Virus record (IMG/VR): IMGVR_UViG_3300021963_000024
Length of the DNA stretch: 64,000 nucleotides
Reading direction: 5' to 3' (one strand)
Source: a virus
Lineage: Duplodnaviria > Heunggongvirae > Uroviricota > Caudoviricetes
Position 1 is the first letter of the stretch. Every line of letters starts with the position of its first letter. The notes below the pieces were generated by a model, which was given only the letters and a program-made list of their open reading frames with translations, did not search any database and had not been told where the DNA came from. This document shows positions 6,484 through 63,819 of this stretch, piece by piece. The translations under genes were made by a program, and so were the position numbers.

Positions 6484-7119
6484 TTATACTATTTCATATC
6501 CTTTTAAAAAATAATCGTTTGCTTTTTTATATTTCACTTCAACTAAATCCCCTTCAGGTGATTTCATTACAATCTTATCGTTTCTACCATAAGTTTGTCG
6601 TTTAACAACCGTAGTAGTGTAAACTCTATCCTTAATAGTGAATCCATCTAAATGGTCAATTTCGTGTTGAACTATAACGGTCATCATTGTTTCTTTTGAA
6701 ACCTGTTCGTTTTGCTTATCTCCTTCTGGATTGATTTCAAATGTTAATTCACCCAAATTATCCGTATCAACTACAACTTTACAAGCTCTAATTGTTCTAA
6801 TAGGCCTTTCAACCGTTCTGGGTATTGATAGGCAACCTTCATAAAAAAGAAATCCATCTTTAGATTTTTCTTTAATAACAGGATTAACTAAAAATAGTTC
6901 TTCATCACCAAATTTAATTAAACATGCTCTTTTTTTAATACCTAATTGAGTAGCTGATATTCCTAAACCCGGGTATTGTTTCATACCTTCTTCTAATTGA
7001 GTTCTTAACTCATCAGCTTCTTTTTGCGTAATTTCTGTTTTCGGACATGGTGTTTTTAGATACTCTCTAAATTCCTTTGTTTCAAATCCTCTACTGTCTT
7101 TGTCAATAATCAATTTCAT
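6484..7119 (-). CDS. def: peptide deformylase
   Basis: All three PDF motifs are present: GLGISATQLG (motif 1), EGCLSIP (motif 2) and QHEIDHLDG (motif 3). Confidence 0.8.
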   Translation of the reverse strand: MKLIIDKDSRGFETKEFREYLKTPCPKTEITQKEADELRTQLEEGMKQYPGLGISATQLGIKKRACLIKFGDEELFLVNPVIKEKSKDGFLFYEGCLSIPRTVERPIRTIRACKVVVDTDNLGELTFEINPEGDKQNEQVSKETMMTVIVQHEIDHLDGFTIKDRVYTTTVVKRQTYGRNDKIVMKSPEGDLVEVKYKKANDYFLKGYEIV

Positions 7120-7328
7120 TTTTCTTTTTTTAATCCGTATTTTATAAATTTATACCAAAATCTTTCATGTAGAAAGTAAATTATTGGTTTTATTATTAAT
7201 TCTCCTAAACCAACCATACCCGCCCACTTTATAGGTAGACCTGCGGAAACTGTAAGAATTATAGTAGTTATAGTTCCTATAAAACGATAACTAACACTTT
7301 TTACTATATGTCTTTTAATCAACGGCAT
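7116..7328 (-). CDS. small membrane protein
   Basis: 70 aa, hydrophobic core. Overlaps its neighbours by 4/14 nt. Confidence 0.3.
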   Translation of the reverse strand: MPLIKRHIVKSVSYRFIGTITTIILTVSAGLPIKWAGMVGLGELIIKPIIYFLHERFWYKFIKYGLKKEK

Positions 7329-7689
7329 ACTCTATAATATCTCCATCGGTATCCATATACCCTTTTCTAATTTTAGTTCCACTAATTAATTCTATATCAA
7401 CCGGTGGGTGATGATGTATAACATCATATCCAACACCTCTACCGTAATTCACACTTTCAATATCTGGAATAATTGAAATCATAATTTTATCAGAATTATC
7501 AATAAAGAATTTTTCTTTAGATAAATCTATTAAAACTTGTTGTGCTGATTTTGGATTGTTTTCATCAACTTGAACATCTCTAATTGCTACCCATACATTT
7601 TTTCCTTTATCTAATTGCTGACTAATCAACCATTCATGTCCTGCGTGCCACGTTTGCCATCTTCCGATGTATAATGCGTATTTTTTCAT
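7315..7689 (-). CDS. NadM-like nucleotidyltransferase (NMN adenylyltransferase-type HxGH fold)
   Basis: IGRWQTWHAGHEWLI parallels the archaeal NadM GRFQPFHKGH motif. The ISGTKIRKG motif is also present. Confidence 0.5.
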   Translation of the reverse strand: MKKYALYIGRWQTWHAGHEWLISQQLDKGKNVWVAIRDVQVDENNPKSAQQVLIDLSKEKFFIDNSDKIMISIIPDIESVNYGRGVGYDVIHHHPPVDIELISGTKIRKGYMDTDGDIIEYAVD

Positions 7690-8577
7690 TTATATAAAGT
7701 TTATAATTGCTAAATCTTTTGCTTTTGCCTCAATCTCAACATCAATATCAACACCATATGAATTTGGTAATTCATTGATATAATCGGAGTGAGCTTGGGG
7801 TTTTAATTTTGTATTATTTTCGTGTAATGATTTTGATTCCGAATAATGTGTCAATTGTTTGATATTTGCCGGCCATGTTGTAGCTGCTAATTGAAGTGCC
7901 TGTTCTTCGGATAAATCACCTGTGCAAAATTTGTGGTGGTGATAATCAAATACAATCGGAATACCCGTATTTTTGTGAATATACATCAAATCTTTAACTG
8001 AATACATTGATGCTTTATCATCATTCTCAATTGTAAGCCTATTTTTAACCGAATTAGAACATCTTTGGAAGTTTTTGATAAATCTATCCATCGCAGAGTT
8101 TTTATCTCCGTAAACACCATTACAATGAATATTAATTGCGTTATATTGAGTTTGAGATAATCCCATAGCATCCATAATTCTACCATGCACCTCTAAATCC
8201 TTAATTGTATTCAAAACTACACTTTCTTTTGGGGAAGTCAATACATTAAACGGACCTGGATGGAATGTTAGGCGTTGTCCATACAACCATGCTTTATCAC
8301 CACATCTTTTTAGTATGTTTGATATTGCTTTCCAATCTTTTAGTTGTGTAAATTCGTATTCGGTAGCCCATGGGAACATTTCTGAACTCATTCGGTATAA
8401 TTTAATACCCATTTCTTCATTCCAATCAATGATTCGTTCTAAATCGGCAACATTTTGTAATACCAAATCAGAAACATAATCCAAACCTTTTTCCGTAAAG
8501 GTTTTTTTAATCATTGTTCGATTTGTAGTTATTTTTTTACCTAATGAAAGGTTTATACAAGCATATCCTATATTCAT
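7690..8577 (-). CDS. uvdE: UV-damage endonuclease UvdE
   Basis: N-terminus IGYACINLSL...LYRMSSEMFP is characteristic of UVDE TIM-barrel endonucleases. 295 aa. Confidence 0.7.
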   Translation of the reverse strand: MNIGYACINLSLGKKITTNRTMIKKTFTEKGLDYVSDLVLQNVADLERIIDWNEEMGIKLYRMSSEMFPWATEYEFTQLKDWKAISNILKRCGDKAWLYGQRLTFHPGPFNVLTSPKESVVLNTIKDLEVHGRIMDAMGLSQTQYNAINIHCNGVYGDKNSAMDRFIKNFQRCSNSVKNRLTIENDDKASMYSVKDLMYIHKNTGIPIVFDYHHHKFCTGDLSEEQALQLAATTWPANIKQLTHYSESKSLHENNTKLKPQAHSDYINELPNSYGVDIDVEIEAKAKDLAIINFI

Positions 8578-21284: not shown

Positions 21285-21653
21285 TTATACGGTTTTCTGT
21301 TTTACTTCTAATGTCTTTGATACTTTTAGTAATTCATGGTCGAAATTACAATTCTTCATACTAATTGCCCCCATTGGTTTGTTTGTAGGTAAGAATACAT
21401 GCTTTGGATAATTACCAATTAACTTATCGGTTGCTTCATAGTATTTAAATCCATTCATTACATCATTTATGTTTAATCCTTTGAATCCTGATTTCTTAAC
21501 CATTAGATTTCTTTCCAATACTCTTAGTATCTCATTTACTTTCTTTGGGTCTTTCAATCCGTTCTTTTCATCCCAAAATACTAACTTAACCATAACAGGT
21601 ACAGTTCCTGCTTTAAATACAGTCGTTGCTTCTAATATTGATTTTAATTTCAT
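21285..21653 (-). CDS. hypothetical protein
   Basis: 122 aa ORF. Confidence 0.4.
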   Translation of the reverse strand: MKLKSILEATTVFKAGTVPVMVKLVFWDEKNGLKDPKKVNEILRVLERNLMVKKSGFKGLNINDVMNGFKYYEATDKLIGNYPKHVFLPTNKPMGAISMKNCNFDHELLKVSKTLEVKQKTV

Positions 21654-21671
21654 AATAATAAATATCTGAAA

Positions 21672-21706
21672 AAGAAAAACCCCACTTTTGGTGGGGTCTC
21701 TTTTTT
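21672..21706. terminator. bidirectional rho-independent terminator
   Basis: Stem CCCCAC (21680-21685)/GTGGGG (21691-21696), flanked by an A-run and a T-run. Confidence 0.55.
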
Positions 21707-22051
21707 ATTTCTTTAAAAACTTCTTTCCGAAATCAATTAGGTAAGGAAGAACTTTCCAACCTACTACTAAACCAACAACGAATTGAAGGTTTAATACGAA
21801 ATCTAATACTGCCATTTTGTTTCAGTTTAGGGTTAAAAAATAAATAACCATCAGTCAACTGATATTCGAATTCGTATTAATAAGTATAAAGGAAAATAGA
21901 TTAAAGCGTTATACTGTCTACTGTCTTGCTTTATTTGCTATCTTTGCTGTTTTGCTGCTGCTGTCTTTTATAACTATCGAGGTTTTTTTCTTTTTCCTTC
22001 GTATTTAGGTAAATATATTTTTCCACATGAGTGTCAACTCATATATCAAAA

Positions 22052-22210
22052 TTGCGCTCTATAGCGAAAAAATTGCCCCCGGTATTCGCACGTATCCGAC
22101 CCGCTTTTACAATGCGCTCTCTTTTTGAGCTACACGAAATTCAGTGCGCAGTGGGGTAGAAACGGGAGGGCACAAAGAACCCGCTAGCAAGTTACTGCTA
22201 GCGGGGGCGT
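22052..22210 (+). ncRNA. GC-rich structured non-coding island (candidate sRNA), copy 1
   Basis: GC-rich patch in an AT-rich genome. Contains TGCGCA hexamers and the 10-bp hairpin CCCGCTAGCA-agttac-TGCTAGCGGG (22180-22206). Shares blocks with 26479-26710. Confidence 0.3.
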
Positions 22211-22255
22211 GAATACATTTTGTTATTCACTTTGTATATGAGTAAGCCTTTTATC

Positions 22256-22477
22256 TTAAAACCACCTTCGTATAAATTCAGGTAGTCCAGATTGAACTTC
22301 GTTGTTCCATTGTTGCATTAGTGCGTTAGCATTATCTATGCCTTCTCTCTTTTGGACCATATAACCTATCTTCATATCCTTACACCATTGTTGAAAGTTA
22401 GTGTCTGCCATTGTAGTTTCTCTTTCTTTCTCTATGGTAGTAAGTCTATCTATTGTTATGTTCTCTATTGTATTCAT
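22256..22477 (-). CDS. hypothetical protein
   Basis: 73 aa ORF. Confidence 0.35.
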   Translation of the reverse strand: MNTIENITIDRLTTIEKERETTMADTNFQQWCKDMKIGYMVQKREGIDNANALMQQWNNEVQSGLPEFIRRWF

Positions 22478-22528
22478 ACTATATGTTATCTTTGCTGAAT
22501 TTATTTTATCTCGGGTGTCCGGCAGGGT

Positions 22529-22759
22529 TTATGCTTTTGCCTGCGGGGGATGTTGTGTAAATTGTTCTGCAAGAATAGCATCTTCATTCTCTGCCATCAT
22601 TTCATCCAATGCGTCGTGTGTTTTAAGTATATGAATTGCCATGCGTAATTCACTCAACCTTTCACTTGCTGCATACTTAGGTTTACCGTCCTTCATTGCT
22701 TTAATCTTTTTCATAAGGACCACTTCACTATGTTCTAATATCTTTATTGCTTCTTGCAT
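22529..22759 (-). CDS. hypothetical protein
   Basis: 76 aa ORF. Confidence 0.35.
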   Translation of the reverse strand: MQEAIKILEHSEVVLMKKIKAMKDGKPKYAASERLSELRMAIHILKTHDALDEMMAENEDAILAEQFTQHPPQAKA

Positions 22760-23160
22760 TGTTTGTTTATTTTATGTTTGTATTCATCCCAAAATATCGG
22801 GGTGTATTTCTTTTCTCTATATCGAGCTTGCCTCTCGTACGGGTTCCTGCTATATGAGCCAGGGTATTTATAATATTTTGTTGTTATAGGTTGTAATTGA
22901 TGTGTCCATTCATGTATACAGGTTGCTATGAGCTCTCGCACATCGTCGCAACCATCCCAATAAATAATCACTTCGTTTTCACTATCGTCATACTCACCAC
23001 ACAGGTCAGGCACCGGTGCTTTTTGTATGGTCCAGATTGGTGCATATTTTTTACGATTGTTTACTCCAAACTTTCGTTTGCACCACCTCAATGCCATATT
23101 TGCAATACGCACAGTTGGCTCTCTACCCAACCGCTGTATTGGTGTATCTAATTCAATCAT
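22744..23160 (-). CDS. hypothetical protein with HExxH (possible SprT-like zinc metallopeptidase)
   Basis: TCIHEWTHQ (an HExxH). 138 aa, Cys-rich. Confidence 0.3.
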   Translation of the reverse strand: MIELDTPIQRLGREPTVRIANMALRWCKRKFGVNNRKKYAPIWTIQKAPVPDLCGEYDDSENEVIIYWDGCDDVRELIATCIHEWTHQLQPITTKYYKYPGSYSRNPYERQARYREKKYTPIFWDEYKHKINKQCKKQ

Positions 23161-23186
23161 AATTTAATACATTAGTTAATAAAAAA

Positions 23187-23213
23187 GACCAGCGCTCTCG
23201 TGCACTGGTCTTA
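23187..23213 (-). terminator. rho-independent terminator
   Basis: Stem GACCAG/CTGGTC. T-run on the minus strand (A-run 23181-23186 on plus). Confidence 0.5.
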
Positions 23214-23290
23214 TTGTTAGAATGCTTTGTTTGTAAAGTAAAATCGGAGAATAACCATTTGAGTAAGAATCGAGATGCAATCCTAACATA

Positions 23291-23324
23291 GAGCGTAGGT
23301 AGGGAGTCGAACCCATCCTACGCT
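23291..23324 (-). other. tRNA-like acceptor/T-arm minihelix
   Basis: Minus-strand read AGCGTAGG-AT-GGG-TTCGACT-CCC-TA-CCTACGCT. The T-loop is TTCGACT and the helix stacks 8+3 bp. There is no D or anticodon arm. Confidence 0.4.
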
Positions 23325-23402
23325 ATAATAACATGGCGGTAGTCAGTAACTCTGTGAAGTTTTTGAGAATAACCACTTATGAAACGGCTAGCCGCCAATA
23401 AA

Positions 23403-23723
23403 TTACTTCACGATAGAAGTGTCAGCCTTAGCTGTTGTATCTACTGCTGCTGCAGTTGAATCAACGCTAACTGCTGTAGAGTCAGCTACATTGATAGCTG
23501 CTGTGTTATTTGAACCACACGCAACCATACCCATAGTCAACACTAACGCCATTGCACCAATCTTAGCTTTGTTCACAATAGTGCTCAAACGCTTAGCATT
23601 ATACAATGCTCTTGTTGTGAAGAAATCTCTCTTTTGTTCAGATGTAGCAGTAGCTGCTTCATTTAAATTGCTTACTAACTCTGTTACCTGATACTCAACT
23701 TTTGACTTAATTGTCTTAGCCAT
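23403..23723 (-). CDS. hypothetical Ala/Thr/Val-rich protein with internal lipobox-like segment
   Basis: GC-richer codon usage than its neighbours. Contains MALVLTMGMVACGS. Confidence 0.35.
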   Translation of the reverse strand: MAKTIKSKVEYQVTELVSNLNEAATATSEQKRDFFTTRALYNAKRLSTIVNKAKIGAMALVLTMGMVACGSNNTAAINVADSTAVSVDSTAAAVDTTAKADTSIVK

Positions 23724-23814
23724 AAAAAACTGTTTTTTGGTCCTCTAAATTATTACTAATTTGAACTCCGCACCAGCGGGACCTTTACTGGCGTTTCATT
23801 CACTATTGTTTTAC

Positions 23815-23843
23815 AATATACGAAACATTTTCGATATTGCCAA
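23815..23843 (-). promoter_or_regulatory. sigma70-like promoter TTGGCA-N17-TATATT
   Basis: Minus-strand read TTGGCAATATCGAAAATGTTTCGTATATT. Confidence 0.45.
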
Positions 23844-23850
23844 ATTTATT

Positions 23851-24204
23851 TTAGAATACATTGTGGTCGAACCATTGACGGATTGACTCTTCAATTTCAT
23901 CTTCAATGTGGTCAGTGTCGATATCAATGTCCTTTAATTCAACTACATTGCCATCGCCGATTTCAAATCTTGCTGAATCATAATCCACTACTTCGGATGA
24001 GTCTACATATGCTAGTCCACCACGAACATGGTCGATTAACTCTTGCATTTCATCTTCGGTGAACTCTGGCTCTGTAACATTCACTTCAATGCGCATCAAT
24101 AAACGCAAGACATCTTCTTTGCTAAAGATATTACTAATTGAATTACTAACGCCATCAATTGCTTGACTCAGCGTGATGGGCGCTGCTACTGTTTGTTTAC
24201 TCAT
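23851..24204 (-). CDS. hypothetical acidic protein
   Basis: 117 aa ORF. Confidence 0.4.
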   Translation of the reverse strand: MSKQTVAAPITLSQAIDGVSNSISNIFSKEDVLRLLMRIEVNVTEPEFTEDEMQELIDHVRGGLAYVDSSEVVDYDSARFEIGDGNVVELKDIDIDTDHIEDEIEESIRQWFDHNVF

Positions 24205-24222
24205 ATTATTTGTTTTAATTAA

Positions 24223-24594
24223 TTACTTATCGGTATCTTCAGGTCTAGTTGCTTGTGAGTCGCGGATTGCCGCCGGCACAATTGCTTCCAAATCCGGCAT
24301 CAATTCACCTAACTCCTTTGCAGCCTGCATTTCCTTTCTTTCACTCTTTGATGTAGCACGCTTAACTGCTGACTCAAATGATTTAGTCAATGCAGTTTCA
24401 GTTTCATTTGCATTCACAAACATACGCACTGAATCTTCATCAACAAAGAAACGAGGTTTGTCCATTTTAGGACCAGTTAATTCAAACACTTCGTATTTGT
24501 GCCTACCTTCACCAAAGTTGAATATCTTTGTTTTAATAGTTGCAACATAACCACGTTTCAACCCTTTCAATGTTTTTGTTTTACTCTTACTCAT
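24223..24594 (-). CDS. hypothetical protein (MSKSK-family paralog)
   Basis: Shares the N-terminal MSKSK and the YEVFELTGPK block with 25403-25648. Confidence 0.4.
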   Translation of the reverse strand: MSKSKTKTLKGLKRGYVATIKTKIFNFGEGRHKYEVFELTGPKMDKPRFFVDEDSVRMFVNANETETALTKSFESAVKRATSKSERKEMQAAKELGELMPDLEAIVPAAIRDSQATRPEDTDK

Positions 24595-24595
24595 A

Positions 24596-24913
24596 TTAAT
24601 GTGTACTATTTAGTTCGTAATTAAATTCTTTTAACAATTCCGTTTCGATTTGGTGAGCTAATGCTTTACCCCTTACTACGTCAACGATAAACAATTCGTA
24701 AACTTCAGGATCATTCTCACGCATATCAATATACAATGCCCATTGCTTTTTCTCTTTACGGGCTCTGCTCTGGTGTTTTAAGAAACGCAAGTGAGCAGAA
24801 TAATGAAACCTACGTCCAATTGCGGCAGTTATACCGATATACGATTTGCCGTTTGATGTATTCACAATTTCGTATATAACGTGGTTTCTATCTGACCTTT
24901 TCTTTCTACTCAT
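24596..24913 (-). CDS. GIY-YIG domain protein
   Basis: VIYEIVNTSNGKSYIGIT...R spacing matches a GIY-YIG nuclease motif. 105 aa. Confidence 0.5.
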   Translation of the reverse strand: MSRKKRSDRNHVIYEIVNTSNGKSYIGITAAIGRRFHYSAHLRFLKHQSRARKEKKQWALYIDMRENDPEVYELFIVDVVRGKALAHQIETELLKEFNYELNSTH

Positions 24914-24924
24914 ATAAAATATTT

Positions 24925-25284
24925 TTACTTAATAATTTCACCATAACCGCCGCAGTTGGTATTTGTTTTAAACCACGACCAATCTTCATCACTATAAAAA
25001 CGGTCCCAATTAGAACCTTTGATAATAGCACCTTTGTAGTATTCAATTACTTTGATATCCTTTAAGATACGGCGGATAGTTGAATAGTATCCGTTTACAT
25101 TGATACGATTGATGTTATCATTATGCATAATAAACATATGCTTAATAACACTAGTCCATGTTGGTTTGCCAACCGAATATTCAACGATATACTTTAGGGA
25201 GTCGTATACCTTTACTAACATTTTTTTGTTAGCCCAATCATAACCAATTTTTTCCCAAACTAAATCTTGTCTAATCTTACTCAT
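24925..25284 (-). CDS. hypothetical protein
   Basis: 119 aa ORF. Confidence 0.4.
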   Translation of the reverse strand: MSKIRQDLVWEKIGYDWANKKMLVKVYDSLKYIVEYSVGKPTWTSVIKHMFIMHNDNINRINVNGYYSTIRRILKDIKVIEYYKGAIIKGSNWDRFYSDEDWSWFKTNTNCGGYGEIIK

Positions 25285-25402
25285 AATATACTATTTACTT
25301 TTTTTAATGTAGGTTTCATAAAACGCCTTACCTGCGGCATATCCAATAATACTAACAACTGAAATAACAATCAATTCAAAAATGGTAATGTGTGTACCCA
25401 TA

Positions 25403-25648
25403 TTATTTATATTTAATTTCGTTCATAATGTTTTTTACTATACTCATAGTCATTTTTGTATCCGTCATTTTATCAATATACGCTTTCGCATCCTTTCTAC
25501 TACAAAAATACTTTTTAAACTTATTAGGACCAGTTACCTTAAACACTTCATAGGTAGCGGACTCAAAGTTATTATCTTTCATTCTCATAACTTTACGAAC
25601 TTTCTTAATTTCGTAATTCTTTTTAATATTTACTTTACTCTTACTCAT
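25403..25648 (-). CDS. hypothetical protein (MSKSK-family paralog)
   Basis: YEVFKVTGPNK block shared with 24223-24594. Confidence 0.4.
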   Translation of the reverse strand: MSKSKVNIKKNYEIKKVRKVMRMKDNNFESATYEVFKVTGPNKFKKYFCSRKDAKAYIDKMTDTKMTMSIVKNIMNEIKYK

Positions 25649-53761: not shown

Positions 53762-54028
53762 TTAAAAATTTCTAAATGCTTTTACTAAATTATCTGGTGA
53801 TTTAAAATCTTCTTTGGTTAAAAAGAACCACTCATTTCTATATCTTGCTAACCACTTACCACCATCATTCCGTCTCCTAACTATTTCAATAATTGTTTCA
53901 TCTTTTTGTTCACTTTCAAATAAAAAAATATAACGGTCAATTTCTTCTTTCACTTCTGAAATTTTCCATCTATTATTGTAAAATATTCCATTTAATTTTT
54001 GATAATTTTCTATTGTTAGCAATTTCAT
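53762..54028 (-). CDS. hypothetical protein
   Basis: 88 aa ORF. Confidence 0.35.
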   Translation of the reverse strand: MKLLTIENYQKLNGIFYNNRWKISEVKEEIDRYIFLFESEQKDETIIEIVRRRNDGGKWLARYRNEWFFLTKEDFKSPDNLVKAFRNF

Positions 54029-54040
54029 ATTATTCTATTT

Positions 54041-54087
54041 TGAAGATAGTAGGGGAATCGAACCCCTACCAAGTTCCAAACTATCTT
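54041..54087 (-). other. tRNA-like element: acceptor stem + T-arm with 12-nt insert replacing the D/anticodon arms
   Basis: Minus-strand read AGATAGT-TT-GGAACTTGGT-AGGGG-TTCGATT-CCCCT-ACTATCT-T(CA). It has a perfect 7-bp acceptor and 5-bp T-stem with a canonical T-loop. Confidence 0.45.
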
Positions 54088-55030
54088 ATTGAATATTCTT
54101 AAACAATGTAGGTATTTGACCATAAACTGGCAACTTACCATCCCACTTATTAACATATTCCATTTGAATAAGTAATGGTGTCAATGTTTGTTGTTTCATT
54201 CTATTTGCTTCAGCTTCTGCTTTAGCAGATGTAAGTAATGCTTGTGCGTTACCCTCTGCGGTTGCTACTTTAATCTTCGCTTGTGCTTCTGCCGTTTTAA
54301 CTTCGTTCTCTGCTCTTAATGCAGCTTGAACTGCGTTGTTCTTAGCGTTGATTGCTTCTTTGAATGAATCTGGATAAATCAAATTAGATGTAAACTGATT
54401 AACCATAAATCCTTCGTTTAACAATTGTCCTTCCAATAACTTACGAACTTCAATCTCAAATTGAGCACGATTACTAATCAATTCATCAGCCGTATATTTG
54501 TTAGTTGCTAAACGAAACGCATCATATACTGCGGTCTTTAAGAAACCTTCTTCAATTTGTTCTAAACTTCTACGATACTTAGCAAAGATGTAAGGAACTT
54601 TTTCTCTCTTTACTGAATAGTTTACGATAGGTGATACATGGAACTCACTACCATCTTTTGAGTTTACTACAAATGAATTATCACCTGTATATTCTTTGTG
54701 TTGAATAAAGGTAGGAAACTCATAAATACGATGCGTAATTGGGTTAAAGAATACAATACCCGTTACTTCCGTTACATCAGCTACACCTTTGTTATCACCA
54801 TAAAGGTTCACTTTAACACCTACGTGTCCTGCATCAATTCTTTCACATGCTGCAAATAATACCATTAATGTAATAAATCCAATAATGGATGCTCCGATTG
54901 TTTTAAACATTTTACTTTGTTTTTGTTTTTGTTCTAAATTAAATTGCGTTTCTAGTTCATCTATTTGTTCATCCGTTCTACGATTACCATAATCATCATA
55001 ACGATAATTATACCTTTGAAATGTTGCCAT
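54086..55030 (-). CDS. SPFH/band-7 (prohibitin/stomatin-like) protein
   Basis: N-terminal TM helix, an SPFH-like core and an Ala/Glu-rich coiled coil (AALRAENEVKTAEAQAKIKVATAEG). Confidence 0.55.
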   Translation of the reverse strand: MATFQRYNYRYDDYGNRRTDEQIDELETQFNLEQKQKQSKMFKTIGASIIGFITLMVLFAACERIDAGHVGVKVNLYGDNKGVADVTEVTGIVFFNPITHRIYEFPTFIQHKEYTGDNSFVVNSKDGSEFHVSPIVNYSVKREKVPYIFAKYRRSLEQIEEGFLKTAVYDAFRLATNKYTADELISNRAQFEIEVRKLLEGQLLNEGFMVNQFTSNLIYPDSFKEAINAKNNAVQAALRAENEVKTAEAQAKIKVATAEGNAQALLTSAKAEAEANRMKQQTLTPLLIQMEYVNKWDGKLPVYGQIPTLFKNIQ

Positions 55031-63336: not shown

Positions 63337-63819
63337 TTATTTATTTTTCATTATATTATATCTACGATGTCTTTCTTCTTCAGAAAGTATTTGTTCAGGT
63401 GCGTAGGTATGTGCTATGTTTACTTTAACACATACTTCTGGTAATTTATTATTTCTAAAATAGTTGTTTACATAACCGATAATGTTAGCTGCTCCTATTG
63501 GATTAGCTGAGTGAACATATACGGTTGGCAATGGAATTTTCTTATTCATTGCTTCCGCAACTAAGTATCTTGCACAATCCATACCTGTTTTTTCAGGTAT
63601 ACGATTATAATCTAATTCGTAGTTTGGTTTAACATTAGTATAATATTCAACCATTGCACCTTCACCCAAATCGTGGTCTAAAGAAATAACTTCGTAATTT
63701 TCCAAACCATTCATTTTGATATGAGCAATGAATTCATCATAATTTCTAACCACTTGCCACTCACCTTCGGTTGGTATCCTCACATCATCCAAATACAACC
63801 ATATCTTATTCTTTTTCAT
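63337..63819 (-). CDS. hypothetical protein
   Basis: 160 aa ORF. Confidence 0.4.
   Translation of the reverse strand: MKKNKIWLYLDDVRIPTEGEWQVVRNYDEFIAHIKMNGLENYEVISLDHDLGEGAMVEYYTNVKPNYELDYNRIPEKTGMDCARYLVAEAMNKKIPLPTVYVHSANPIGAANIIGYVNNYFRNNKLPEVCVKVNIAHTYAPEQILSEEERHRRYNIMKNK

Follow-up and report, generated by a model that had tools for sequence, protein, structure and literature searches.

We identified two short elements in a 64,000-nucleotide stretch of DNA from a Caudoviricetes virus (the window) that consist of an acceptor-type helix and a T arm. We give about an even chance to the reading that both are tRNA-derived top-half modules within polycistronic phage mRNAs, where they would act as punctuation read by RNase P, RNase Z or the CCA enzyme. 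Bacterial RNase P, RNase Z and the CCA-adding enzyme recognise a tRNA precursor by its 12-13 stacked base pairs, its T loop, the leader base at -1 and the trailer at 73/74, and all of these are kept in the elements. The parts needed for decoding have been lost.

The window is AT-rich (~30% GC) and all of its long ORFs lie on the minus strand. Its gene content is phage-like and includes genes for an SPFH/band-7 protein, DNA ligase, a carbamoyltransferase, UvdE, peptide deformylase, an NlpC/P60 protein and a cREC_REC domain protein. The best GenBank phage matches of the SPFH protein are to crAss-like and Lak phages (~45% identity), and many relatives at 70-84% identity occur in IMG/VR, on contigs of up to 324 kb. 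TAnnTTTG-type motifs follow the terminators in several of the SPFH-locus relatives, which we take to suggest Bacteroidota hosts. A Megablast search of GenBank phages with both element regions gave no match, and relatives of both loci were collected via proteins. The window contains zero detectable tRNA genes; in one relative, 17 genes for tRNAs and one for tmRNA lie ~3 kb downstream of SPFH (L060/L062, 9826-12833).

The sequence-only reading had described two minus-strand elements with a tRNA-type T loop, and both are as described. The exact T-arm motif GGTTCGANTCC occurs twice in the window, each time on the coding strand, against 0.03 occurrences expected, and none of 100 shuffles reached two. 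A scripted search for the full acceptor-plus-T-arm architecture returned the same two sites (0.15 expected; two were reached in 3 of 200 shuffles). Both elements are real and exceed chance. In each, a 7-bp acceptor helix is stacked on a T arm whose UUCRANY loop is closed by the pair G53:C61, and neither has a cloverleaf with D and anticodon arms. In agreement with the initial statement that neither folds as a complete tRNA, ARAGORN at default settings calls no tRNA gene in the window, and Rfam reports nothing there at the gathering threshold and no tRNA match around either element even at E<=10. Relaxed ARAGORN settings (-ps80, -ps70, -i, -mt) gave 9-150 scattered calls, among them a 'tRNA-Stop(tta)' (54042-54128) and calls with introns that end at the two elements; we treated these as noise because their acceptor stems are poor (4/7 pairs) and reach into conserved SPFH coding sequence. 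Neither element is a GC-rich hairpin followed by a U tract, the form of an intrinsic terminator. The coordinates of the elements and their neighbours are given in Table 1.

Table 1. Features at the two element loci of the window
Feature	Position	Strand	Remarks
SPFH/band-7 gene	54086-55030	minus	Pfam Band_7, 78 bits; stop codon TAA 54086-54088 overlaps element 1
Element 1, outer (acceptor-type) helix, 5' strand AAGATAG	54081-54087	minus	pairs with 54043-54049; 6/7 positions covary in 24 members
Element 1, single-stranded junction TTTGGAACTTGG	54069-54080	minus	TTTGGAA conserved, D-loop-like (YYGGNA)
Element 1, T arm TAGGGG / TTCGATT / CCCCTA	54050-54068	minus	6-bp helix, 7-nt T loop
Element 1, outer helix 3' strand CTATCTT and invariant C (54042)	54042-54049	minus	C in 24/24 members
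88-aa ORF downstream of element 1	53762-54028	minus	ATG 54026-54028, 14 nt after element 1
Upstream stem-loop (GGCGG...CCGCC)	23334-23395	minus	internal GGTTATTCTC motif; conserved in closest relatives
Element 2, minihelix-Gly	23291-23324	minus	tRNA-Gly positions 1-7 + 49-73
Element 2, A(-1) and acceptor GCGTAGG	23317-23323 (acceptor)	minus	
Element 2, T arm ATGGG TTCGACT CCCTA	23300-23316	minus	
Element 2, acceptor CCTACGC	23293-23299	minus	
Element 2, U73	23292	minus	
Element 2, C74	23291	minus	
Conserved structured RNA (~110 nt)	23181-23290	minus	directly 3' of element 2; covarying closing stem, pseudoknot
Structured RNA, P1	23277-23287 with 23216-23225	minus	
Structured RNA, invariant core	23231-23256	minus	GGTTATTCTCCGATTT(T)ACTTTACAA; also given as GGTTATTCTCCGATTTTACTTTACAA
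Structured RNA, pseudoknot	23196-23200 with 23271-23275	minus	terminator loop CGAGA pairs with TCTCG
Terminator hairpin	23185-23212	minus	element 2 lies 78 nt before terminator
138-aa gene downstream of element 2	22744-23160	minus	contains CIHEWTHQ; used to fetch syntenic loci

Element 1 (54042-54087) reads tAAGATAG, the junction, TAGGGG TTCGATT CCCCTA and CTATCTT C on the minus strand. The helix AGATAGT/ACTATCT and the T stem AGGGG/CCCCT first noted are present, and covariation across the family prefers a register shifted by one, AAGATAG/CTATCTT with TAGGGG/CCCCTA; 13 bp are stacked in either register. A strict tRNA register (T7 with position 66) is slightly worse, the pair being non-canonical in 8 of 24 sequences. 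Twelve nucleotides separate the acceptor 5' strand from the T stem, pair 3:70 is A:U, and the first two bases of the outer helix are the last two of the SPFH stop codon. Both elements had been placed at the 3' ends of transcription units, which holds for the element-2 locus but not for element 1, where we found no terminator-like site nearby on the minus strand and where the next ATG follows after 14 nt. A terminator role for element 1 itself was ruled out because it has no U tract, and a longer tRNA with its 5' half inside the SPFH gene was rejected because the local helix covaries. In the window copy, the consensus fold has -12.8 kcal/mol against an MFE of -16.0, and the ensemble probability of the outer helix is ~5%; the consensus fold is the MFE in the GC-richer family members only.

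Element 1 belongs to a family that occurs in IMG/VR phage contigs and in one Alistipes MAG contig, with a common plan of 7-bp outer helix, UUUGGAA junction, 6-bp T helix, UUCRANU loop and invariant C. Among 80 loci fetched solely via the SPFH protein, eight relatives carry it directly on the SPFH stop codon. Between these relatives the outer helix AAGATAG/CTATCTT changes in a compensatory manner to AAAATAG/CTATTTT or AAGATAA/TTATCTT, and the T helix TAGGGG/CCCCTA to CAGGGG/CCCCTG. Full pairing is maintained across SPFH proteins that are 72-84% identical, and the sequence just downstream of the element is unalignable.

Further gene contexts and helices were added by pattern scans of IMG/VR. The patterns used account in part for G53:C61, G52:C62 and parts of the T loop being invariant in the enlarged family. 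In an alignment of 17 sequences the 7+6 structure is 100% paired with seven covarying pairs, a score reached in none of 500 shuffles, and sliding the register by 1-3 columns lowers the pairing to ~50%. Pairs in the enlarged family were counted by script because a MAFFT alignment mis-gapped three sequences. Among its 24 distinct sequences, which include at least four different T stems and at least six different outer helices, 167 of 168 outer-helix cells are paired and between two and four pair types occur at six of the seven positions. Covariation extends to T-helix positions 1-4, the first pair being U-A, C-G or G-C. The first outer-helix pair is A:U in all 24 and the base preceding the helix is T in 21. 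G-U pairs are present in the family helices and A-C pairs are absent. A covariance model built from the family and searched against the window found only the two sites reported here, at 76.7 bits and, for the element-2 locus, 23 bits; it also recovers that locus in L132/L134 (38.5 bits).

In the junction, TTTGGAA is identical in all nine copies found via the SPFH protein alone; independent variants are TTCGGAA (one group), CTTGGAG (the Alistipes MAG contig) and TTAAGGAAA. We infer that UUUGGAA is a D-loop remnant (Y16 Y17 G18 G19 N20 A21) whose docking on the T loop could produce a tRNA elbow. The same seven nucleotides, part of the junction at 54069-54080 in the window and of the family junctions, equal the anticodon loop of tRNA-Pro(UGG); accordingly, ~100 of 119 matches to a TTTGGAA...T-loop pattern were ordinary tRNA-Pro(UGG) genes, which were removed by requiring a local outer helix. 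The UGGAA of the junction is also complementary to UUCCA in the anticodon loop of the tRNA-Gly(UCC) encoded at the element-2 locus of relatives, which may be coincidence or D-loop mimicry.

All members of the element 1 family are in sense orientation, 0-26 nt past the stop codon of an ORF and 14-36 nt ahead of the next ATG. The upstream genes encode two divergent SPFH types, a 56-aa ORF, an HNH endonuclease, a 357-aa protein and an ORF of ~410-430 aa; the last lies upstream in about six contigs, and the one that was scanned (L192) matches a major head protein (phrog_10, E 9e-42). The stop codon straddles the helix start as T|AA after the SPFH, HNH and 56-aa ORFs, and several members lie 9-26 nt past the stop codon. 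Downstream genes vary among relatives while the element stays attached to SPFH, and no adjacent partner protein is conserved across the family contexts. SPFH relatives that lack the element have an ordinary terminator hairpin or a directly abutting gene at the same spot, or in one case (L017) a tRNA-like gene; the closest SPFH relative (L001) is among those without element 1.

A subtype with the outer helix AAGGATG/CATCCTT and four different covarying T stems occurs in L192, L210, L227, L243, L248, L262 and L272. In the first six of these it lies 11-12 nt after the ~410-430-aa ORF, whose stop codon falls within the loop of a small hairpin; for L272 the scripted scan found the overlapping stop of a 69-codon frame and not this ORF. 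The cREC_REC (cyclic-phosphate-processing receiver) domain protein of the window is encoded at 63337-63819 on the minus strand, and homologues lie 0.3-0.7 kb from minihelices in three other contigs (L089 8174-8611, L092 7577-8014 and L101 519-947); a tie of the minihelices to RNA-end chemistry via this protein is possible.

Other reduced tRNA-like elements were encountered. In L017, three tRNA-like genes (6951-7041, 7272-7356 and 7697-7798) stand right after SPFH with an identical acceptor helix and T arm (..ACAGGTTCGAATCCTGTCCTGACTA) and different, non-canonical middles; they score 34-42 bits with the Rfam tRNA model and are all missed by ARAGORN. L020, L003 and L058 contain 3' halves that resemble theirs. 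A group of IMG/VR contigs unrelated to the window (L108-L122, L114, L107) carries elements made of an acceptor helix, a 12-17-nt junction and a T arm, for example AGTAGGT..GGGGTTCGATTCCCTACCTACT and AGGTAGG..TAGGGTTCGATTCCCTACCTACCT. Top-half tRNA remnants may be widespread in phages.

Element 2 has the minus-strand sequence A GCGTAGG ATGGG TTCGACT CCCTA CCTACGC T C. As originally described, an 8-bp helix directly encloses the T hairpin; the T stem has three G-C pairs and two mismatches, no nucleotide separates the acceptor 5' strand from the T stem, and pair 3:70 is G:C. It lies in a part of the window (21500-25500) that has no ORF of at least 150 aa, nine terminator-like hairpins against 2.5 expected, and the GC maximum of the window (38.5%, at 22-24 kb). 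A search with the pattern GGGTTCGANTCCCTACCTAC returned unrelated contigs, some with tRNA-like oddities of their own, and no relatives. Syntenic loci were instead fetched via the downstream 138-aa protein, and they share a layout of upstream gene, hairpin, tRNA-sized slot, ~100 conserved nucleotides, terminator and gene.

The comparison with relatives at syntenic positions, which the sequence-only reading had proposed, reveals the origin of element 2. ARAGORN calls an intact tRNA-Gly in the slot of eight relatives (anticodon UCC, once CCC), and L139 and L144-L168 have a tRNA-Gly(UCC) with a ~28-nt D-loop insertion (TACCTCACGGACGTAAAAGCCCATGGGT) that ARAGORN misses (~2780-2880 in each locus). 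In the window and its closest relatives (L125-L131), acceptor strand 1-7 is joined straight to the T arm. The alignment has a single clean gap that corresponds to the D arm, anticodon arm and variable loop, and the leader (..TA|GCG) and trailer (CGC-T-CTA) are common to full tRNAs and minis. On this comparison element 2 is demonstrably a phage tRNA-Gly(UCC) gene after loss of nucleotides 8-48. L132-135 retain a 9-nt junction, UUAAGGAAA, and L138 has yet another junction and T loop; judged from these sequences, three lineages reduced the tRNA-Gly differently and independently, and the acceptor and T arm were retained each time. The helix covaries at this locus too (GCGT/ACGC versus GCAT/ATGC). 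L126 and L128 keep the hairpin with a T loop that has changed to CTCGATA, so a plain hairpin may be all that is selected here.

The tRNA or minihelix is placed exactly at the 5' border of a conserved structured RNA for which an Rfam search gave no match. Its closing stem varies in sequence and is always complementary, and the loop of the terminator takes part in a 5-bp pseudoknot. Its pairing is complete (100%) across 20 sequences, and three of the pairs covary (CG/AU, CG/UA and GC/AU/UA); RNAalifold unaided predicts the same long-range helix. This RNA might function on its own as a small RNA or act in cis as a leader that regulates the 138-aa HExxH-motif gene. The terminator behind element 2 and the GGCGG...CCGCC stem before it, both noted initially, are confirmed. 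Within the latter stem lies GTGGTTATTCTCAAA, which is paralogous to the core motif of the RNA downstream; the stem is conserved in L125-L131 and L137.

Transcript processing or stabilisation is the reading that fits these observations best, because the elements are sense-strand, tightly intercistronic, follow the SPFH and major capsid genes and keep a tRNA-type leader A and trailer C. We predict that host tRNA-processing enzymes would cut at the 5' and/or 3' edge of the module and separate the upstream mRNA, encoding SPFH or the major capsid protein, from the downstream mRNA. If the cut fell at the 3' edge, the upstream mRNA would end in a protective tRNA-like structure, and cuts at both edges would release a free mini-RNA; a nuclease-resistant tRNA-like end would be present on the upstream RNA or on the mini-RNA once excised. 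At element 2 the cut would release the 5' end of the adjacent structured RNA, which lies where RNase Z cleavage would generate it, and in element 1 the UUUGGAA strand could form the tRNA elbow. The major capsid gene probably needs mRNA levels unlike those of its neighbours.

Several observations count against processing. A cut at tRNA +1 would remove part of the SPFH stop codon and yield a message ending in UA, as in mitochondrial punctuation, although such a message would cause problems in a bacterium. RNase P cleavage is usually reduced or displaced when positions -1 and 73 are paired. The weak outer helix of the window's element 1 also speaks against it, as do the three-pair T stem of element 2 and the T-loop drift in L126 and L128.

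A different product of the same cuts has to be considered. The mini-RNA could itself be the product once excised, as a top-half tRNA that is stable, carries a CCA tail, may be aminoacylated and acts in trans. It might decoy or inhibit host enzymes or defence toxins that recognise the acceptor end or elbow, or its GGA junction might pair with the anticodon loop of tRNA-Gly(UCC). Conservation of the UUUGGAA junction, the T loop, the first A:U pair and the following C beyond the apparent need of a cleavage mark would suit such a role, as would the ability of several synthetases to charge minihelices and the complementarity of the junction to the tRNA-Gly(UCC) of relatives. Element 2 moreover retains G1:C72, C2:G71 and U73, which are bacterial glycine acceptor-stem determinants (PMC9976931). 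However, the elements lack a promoter and terminator of their own, are wedged between ORFs and overlap a stop codon; no single aminoacylation identity is apparent because acceptor sequences vary widely among members; no conserved partner protein is adjacent across contexts; and D-loop mimicry (G18 G19 N A21) accounts just as well for the complementarity of the GGA. We therefore regard a trans-acting product as rather unlikely. A more specific form is slightly less probable again, namely that the UUUGGAA minihelices are a previously undescribed phage small-RNA class, excised by the tRNA machinery, CCA-tailed and trans-active, titrating or shielding against readers of the acceptor end or elbow or pairing through GGA with tRNA-Gly(UCC), in which the cut would also truncate the upstream stop codon as in mitochondria.

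The position of the elements at stop codons would also suit a signal that acts on the ribosome, by setting termination efficiency or by coupling or insulating the next cistron, or a generic barrier to 3' exonucleases that replaces a terminator, with the tRNA likeness mere ancestry. The T|AA stop over the helix start, the preceding T in 21 of 24 members and the closeness of the next ATG are in line with this, and so are the terminator hairpins found at the same place in relatives and the hairpin-only variants of element 2 that outlive the loss of T-loop sequence. Such a signal leaves the invariant T loop, the GGAA junction and the conserved C after the helix in the element 1 family unexplained, and does not suit the members that lie 9-26 nt past the stop; we consider it quite unlikely.

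It had also been suggested that the elements are decayed tRNA genes. The tRNA origin of element 2 stands, given the full tRNA-Gly(UCC) of syntenic relatives; plain decay does not. Neutral relics, that is, functionless tRNA genes with a deleted middle that have yet to decay, would agree with this origin, with the degraded T stem of the window's element 2, the mutated T loops of L126 and L128, the large tRNA arrays near SPFH in relatives such as L060, and the patchy presence of element 1, including its absence from L001. Neutral decay is nevertheless contradicted, because the helices covary and the reductions run parallel: pairing is kept at 100% by compensatory changes beside unalignable sequence, the same architecture is found beside unrelated genes and is built from many different helices, and the acceptor and T arm survived each of three independent reductions at a single locus. 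We judge this explanation very unlikely.

A DNA-level element, either an attachment or recombination relic as also proposed from sequence or a conserved linker for phage gene-module exchange, is highly improbable: phage attP sites often copy tRNA 3' halves, the downstream genes differ while the element stays with SPFH, and one member follows an HNH endonuclease gene, but a search with the T arm and acceptor 3' strand in one genome from each of 185,579 species found no tRNA (the sole match was the minihelix of the Alistipes MAG contig), no integrase family occurs among the 42 scanned window ORFs of at least 150 aa or among the immediate neighbours, and the helices covary without the sequence being kept, with G-U but no A-C pairs and always on the sense strand.

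The processing reading places the elements in a known kind, tRNA-like processing elements, from which they differ as a minimal, natural minihelix family of 32-47 nt in phages. A literature search for phage minihelix or tRNA-like intercistronic elements found nothing specific, and no family of this kind exists in Rfam. Among documented systems, the plant mitochondrial t-element comes closest. T-elements were found by the motif GGTTCRANYCC, and the cleavage by RNase P and RNase Z that they direct generates the ends of mRNAs. They occur at the 5' or the 3' end of an mRNA, in some cases with the cut within a reading frame or at its end, and after excision are given non-templated C/A (PMC1920247). 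Like them, the phage elements are non-decoding tRNA-like structures within mRNAs with the same T-arm motif (PMC1920247), here on the sense strand between ORFs. T-elements are organellar and mostly form a non-canonical cloverleaf of ~74 nt, whereas the phage elements lack a D stem and an anticodon arm; the phage family is conserved and covarying across several gene contexts, and its cleavage is predicted.

The tRNA-like domain of tmRNA, including its reduced jakobid mitochondrial form, likewise has an acceptor helix, a T arm and a D-loop without a D stem, lacks an anticodon and is processed by RNase P (PMC3929946, PMC3590771). Unlike it, the phage elements have no G3:U70 alanine mark and no helix leading to a tag reading frame, their helix closing locally; the Rfam tmRNA model matches a 17-nt T-arm stretch only, at 11.6 bits against a gathering score of 47. 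The tRNA-like module of YrlA is another case of tRNA mimicry in bacteria and phages, and one member is cut by RNase P RNA and CCA-tailed, with the 7-bp acceptor stem as the key feature (PMC4201824). In YrlA both D and T arms are kept, together with a Ro60-binding stem and an adjacent Ro60 gene (PMC4201824), whereas the phage elements lie inside operons. No TROVE (Ro60) family appeared in the Pfam overview of the window, and there was no Rfam match to Y RNA.

The architecture itself is familiar from the laboratory. Synthetic acceptor-T-arm minihelices were reportedly used as synthetase substrates by Francklyn and Schimmel in 1989 (listed in PMC9976931). They also serve as model substrates of RNase P and the CCA enzyme. 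Element 2 has exactly this design, nucleotides 1-7 joined to 49-72 plus a discriminator, and element 1 is a 13-bp stack. In contrast to these constructs, the phage elements are natural, encoded and maintained, and the element 1 family adds a conserved 11-14-nt junction. In mascRNA/MALAT1, the MHV68 tRNA-linked RNAs and the bacterial 3'ETS-leuZ, a tRNA or tRNA-like handle directs RNase P or RNase Z to make the end of a neighbouring RNA, the role we propose for element 2 and the adjacent structured RNA. Those handles are complete cloverleaf-like units in eukaryotic or E. coli settings, whereas the phage elements are reduced.

The acceptor-T-arm minihelix has been known mainly as a laboratory substrate and a hypothetical tRNA ancestor; here it is a natural, selected genomic element, and one locus displays an evolutionary series from a full tRNA-Gly to a bare 32-nt minihelix. 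The work on element 2 also points to a new pseudoknotted RNA beside the element. If the elements do act in processing, they would give annotators a new signal that is currently missed by tRNA finders and Rfam. Phages of Bacteroidota-type hosts would then shape their operon transcripts, including the major capsid mRNA, by tRNA punctuation, which has so far been documented mainly in organelles.
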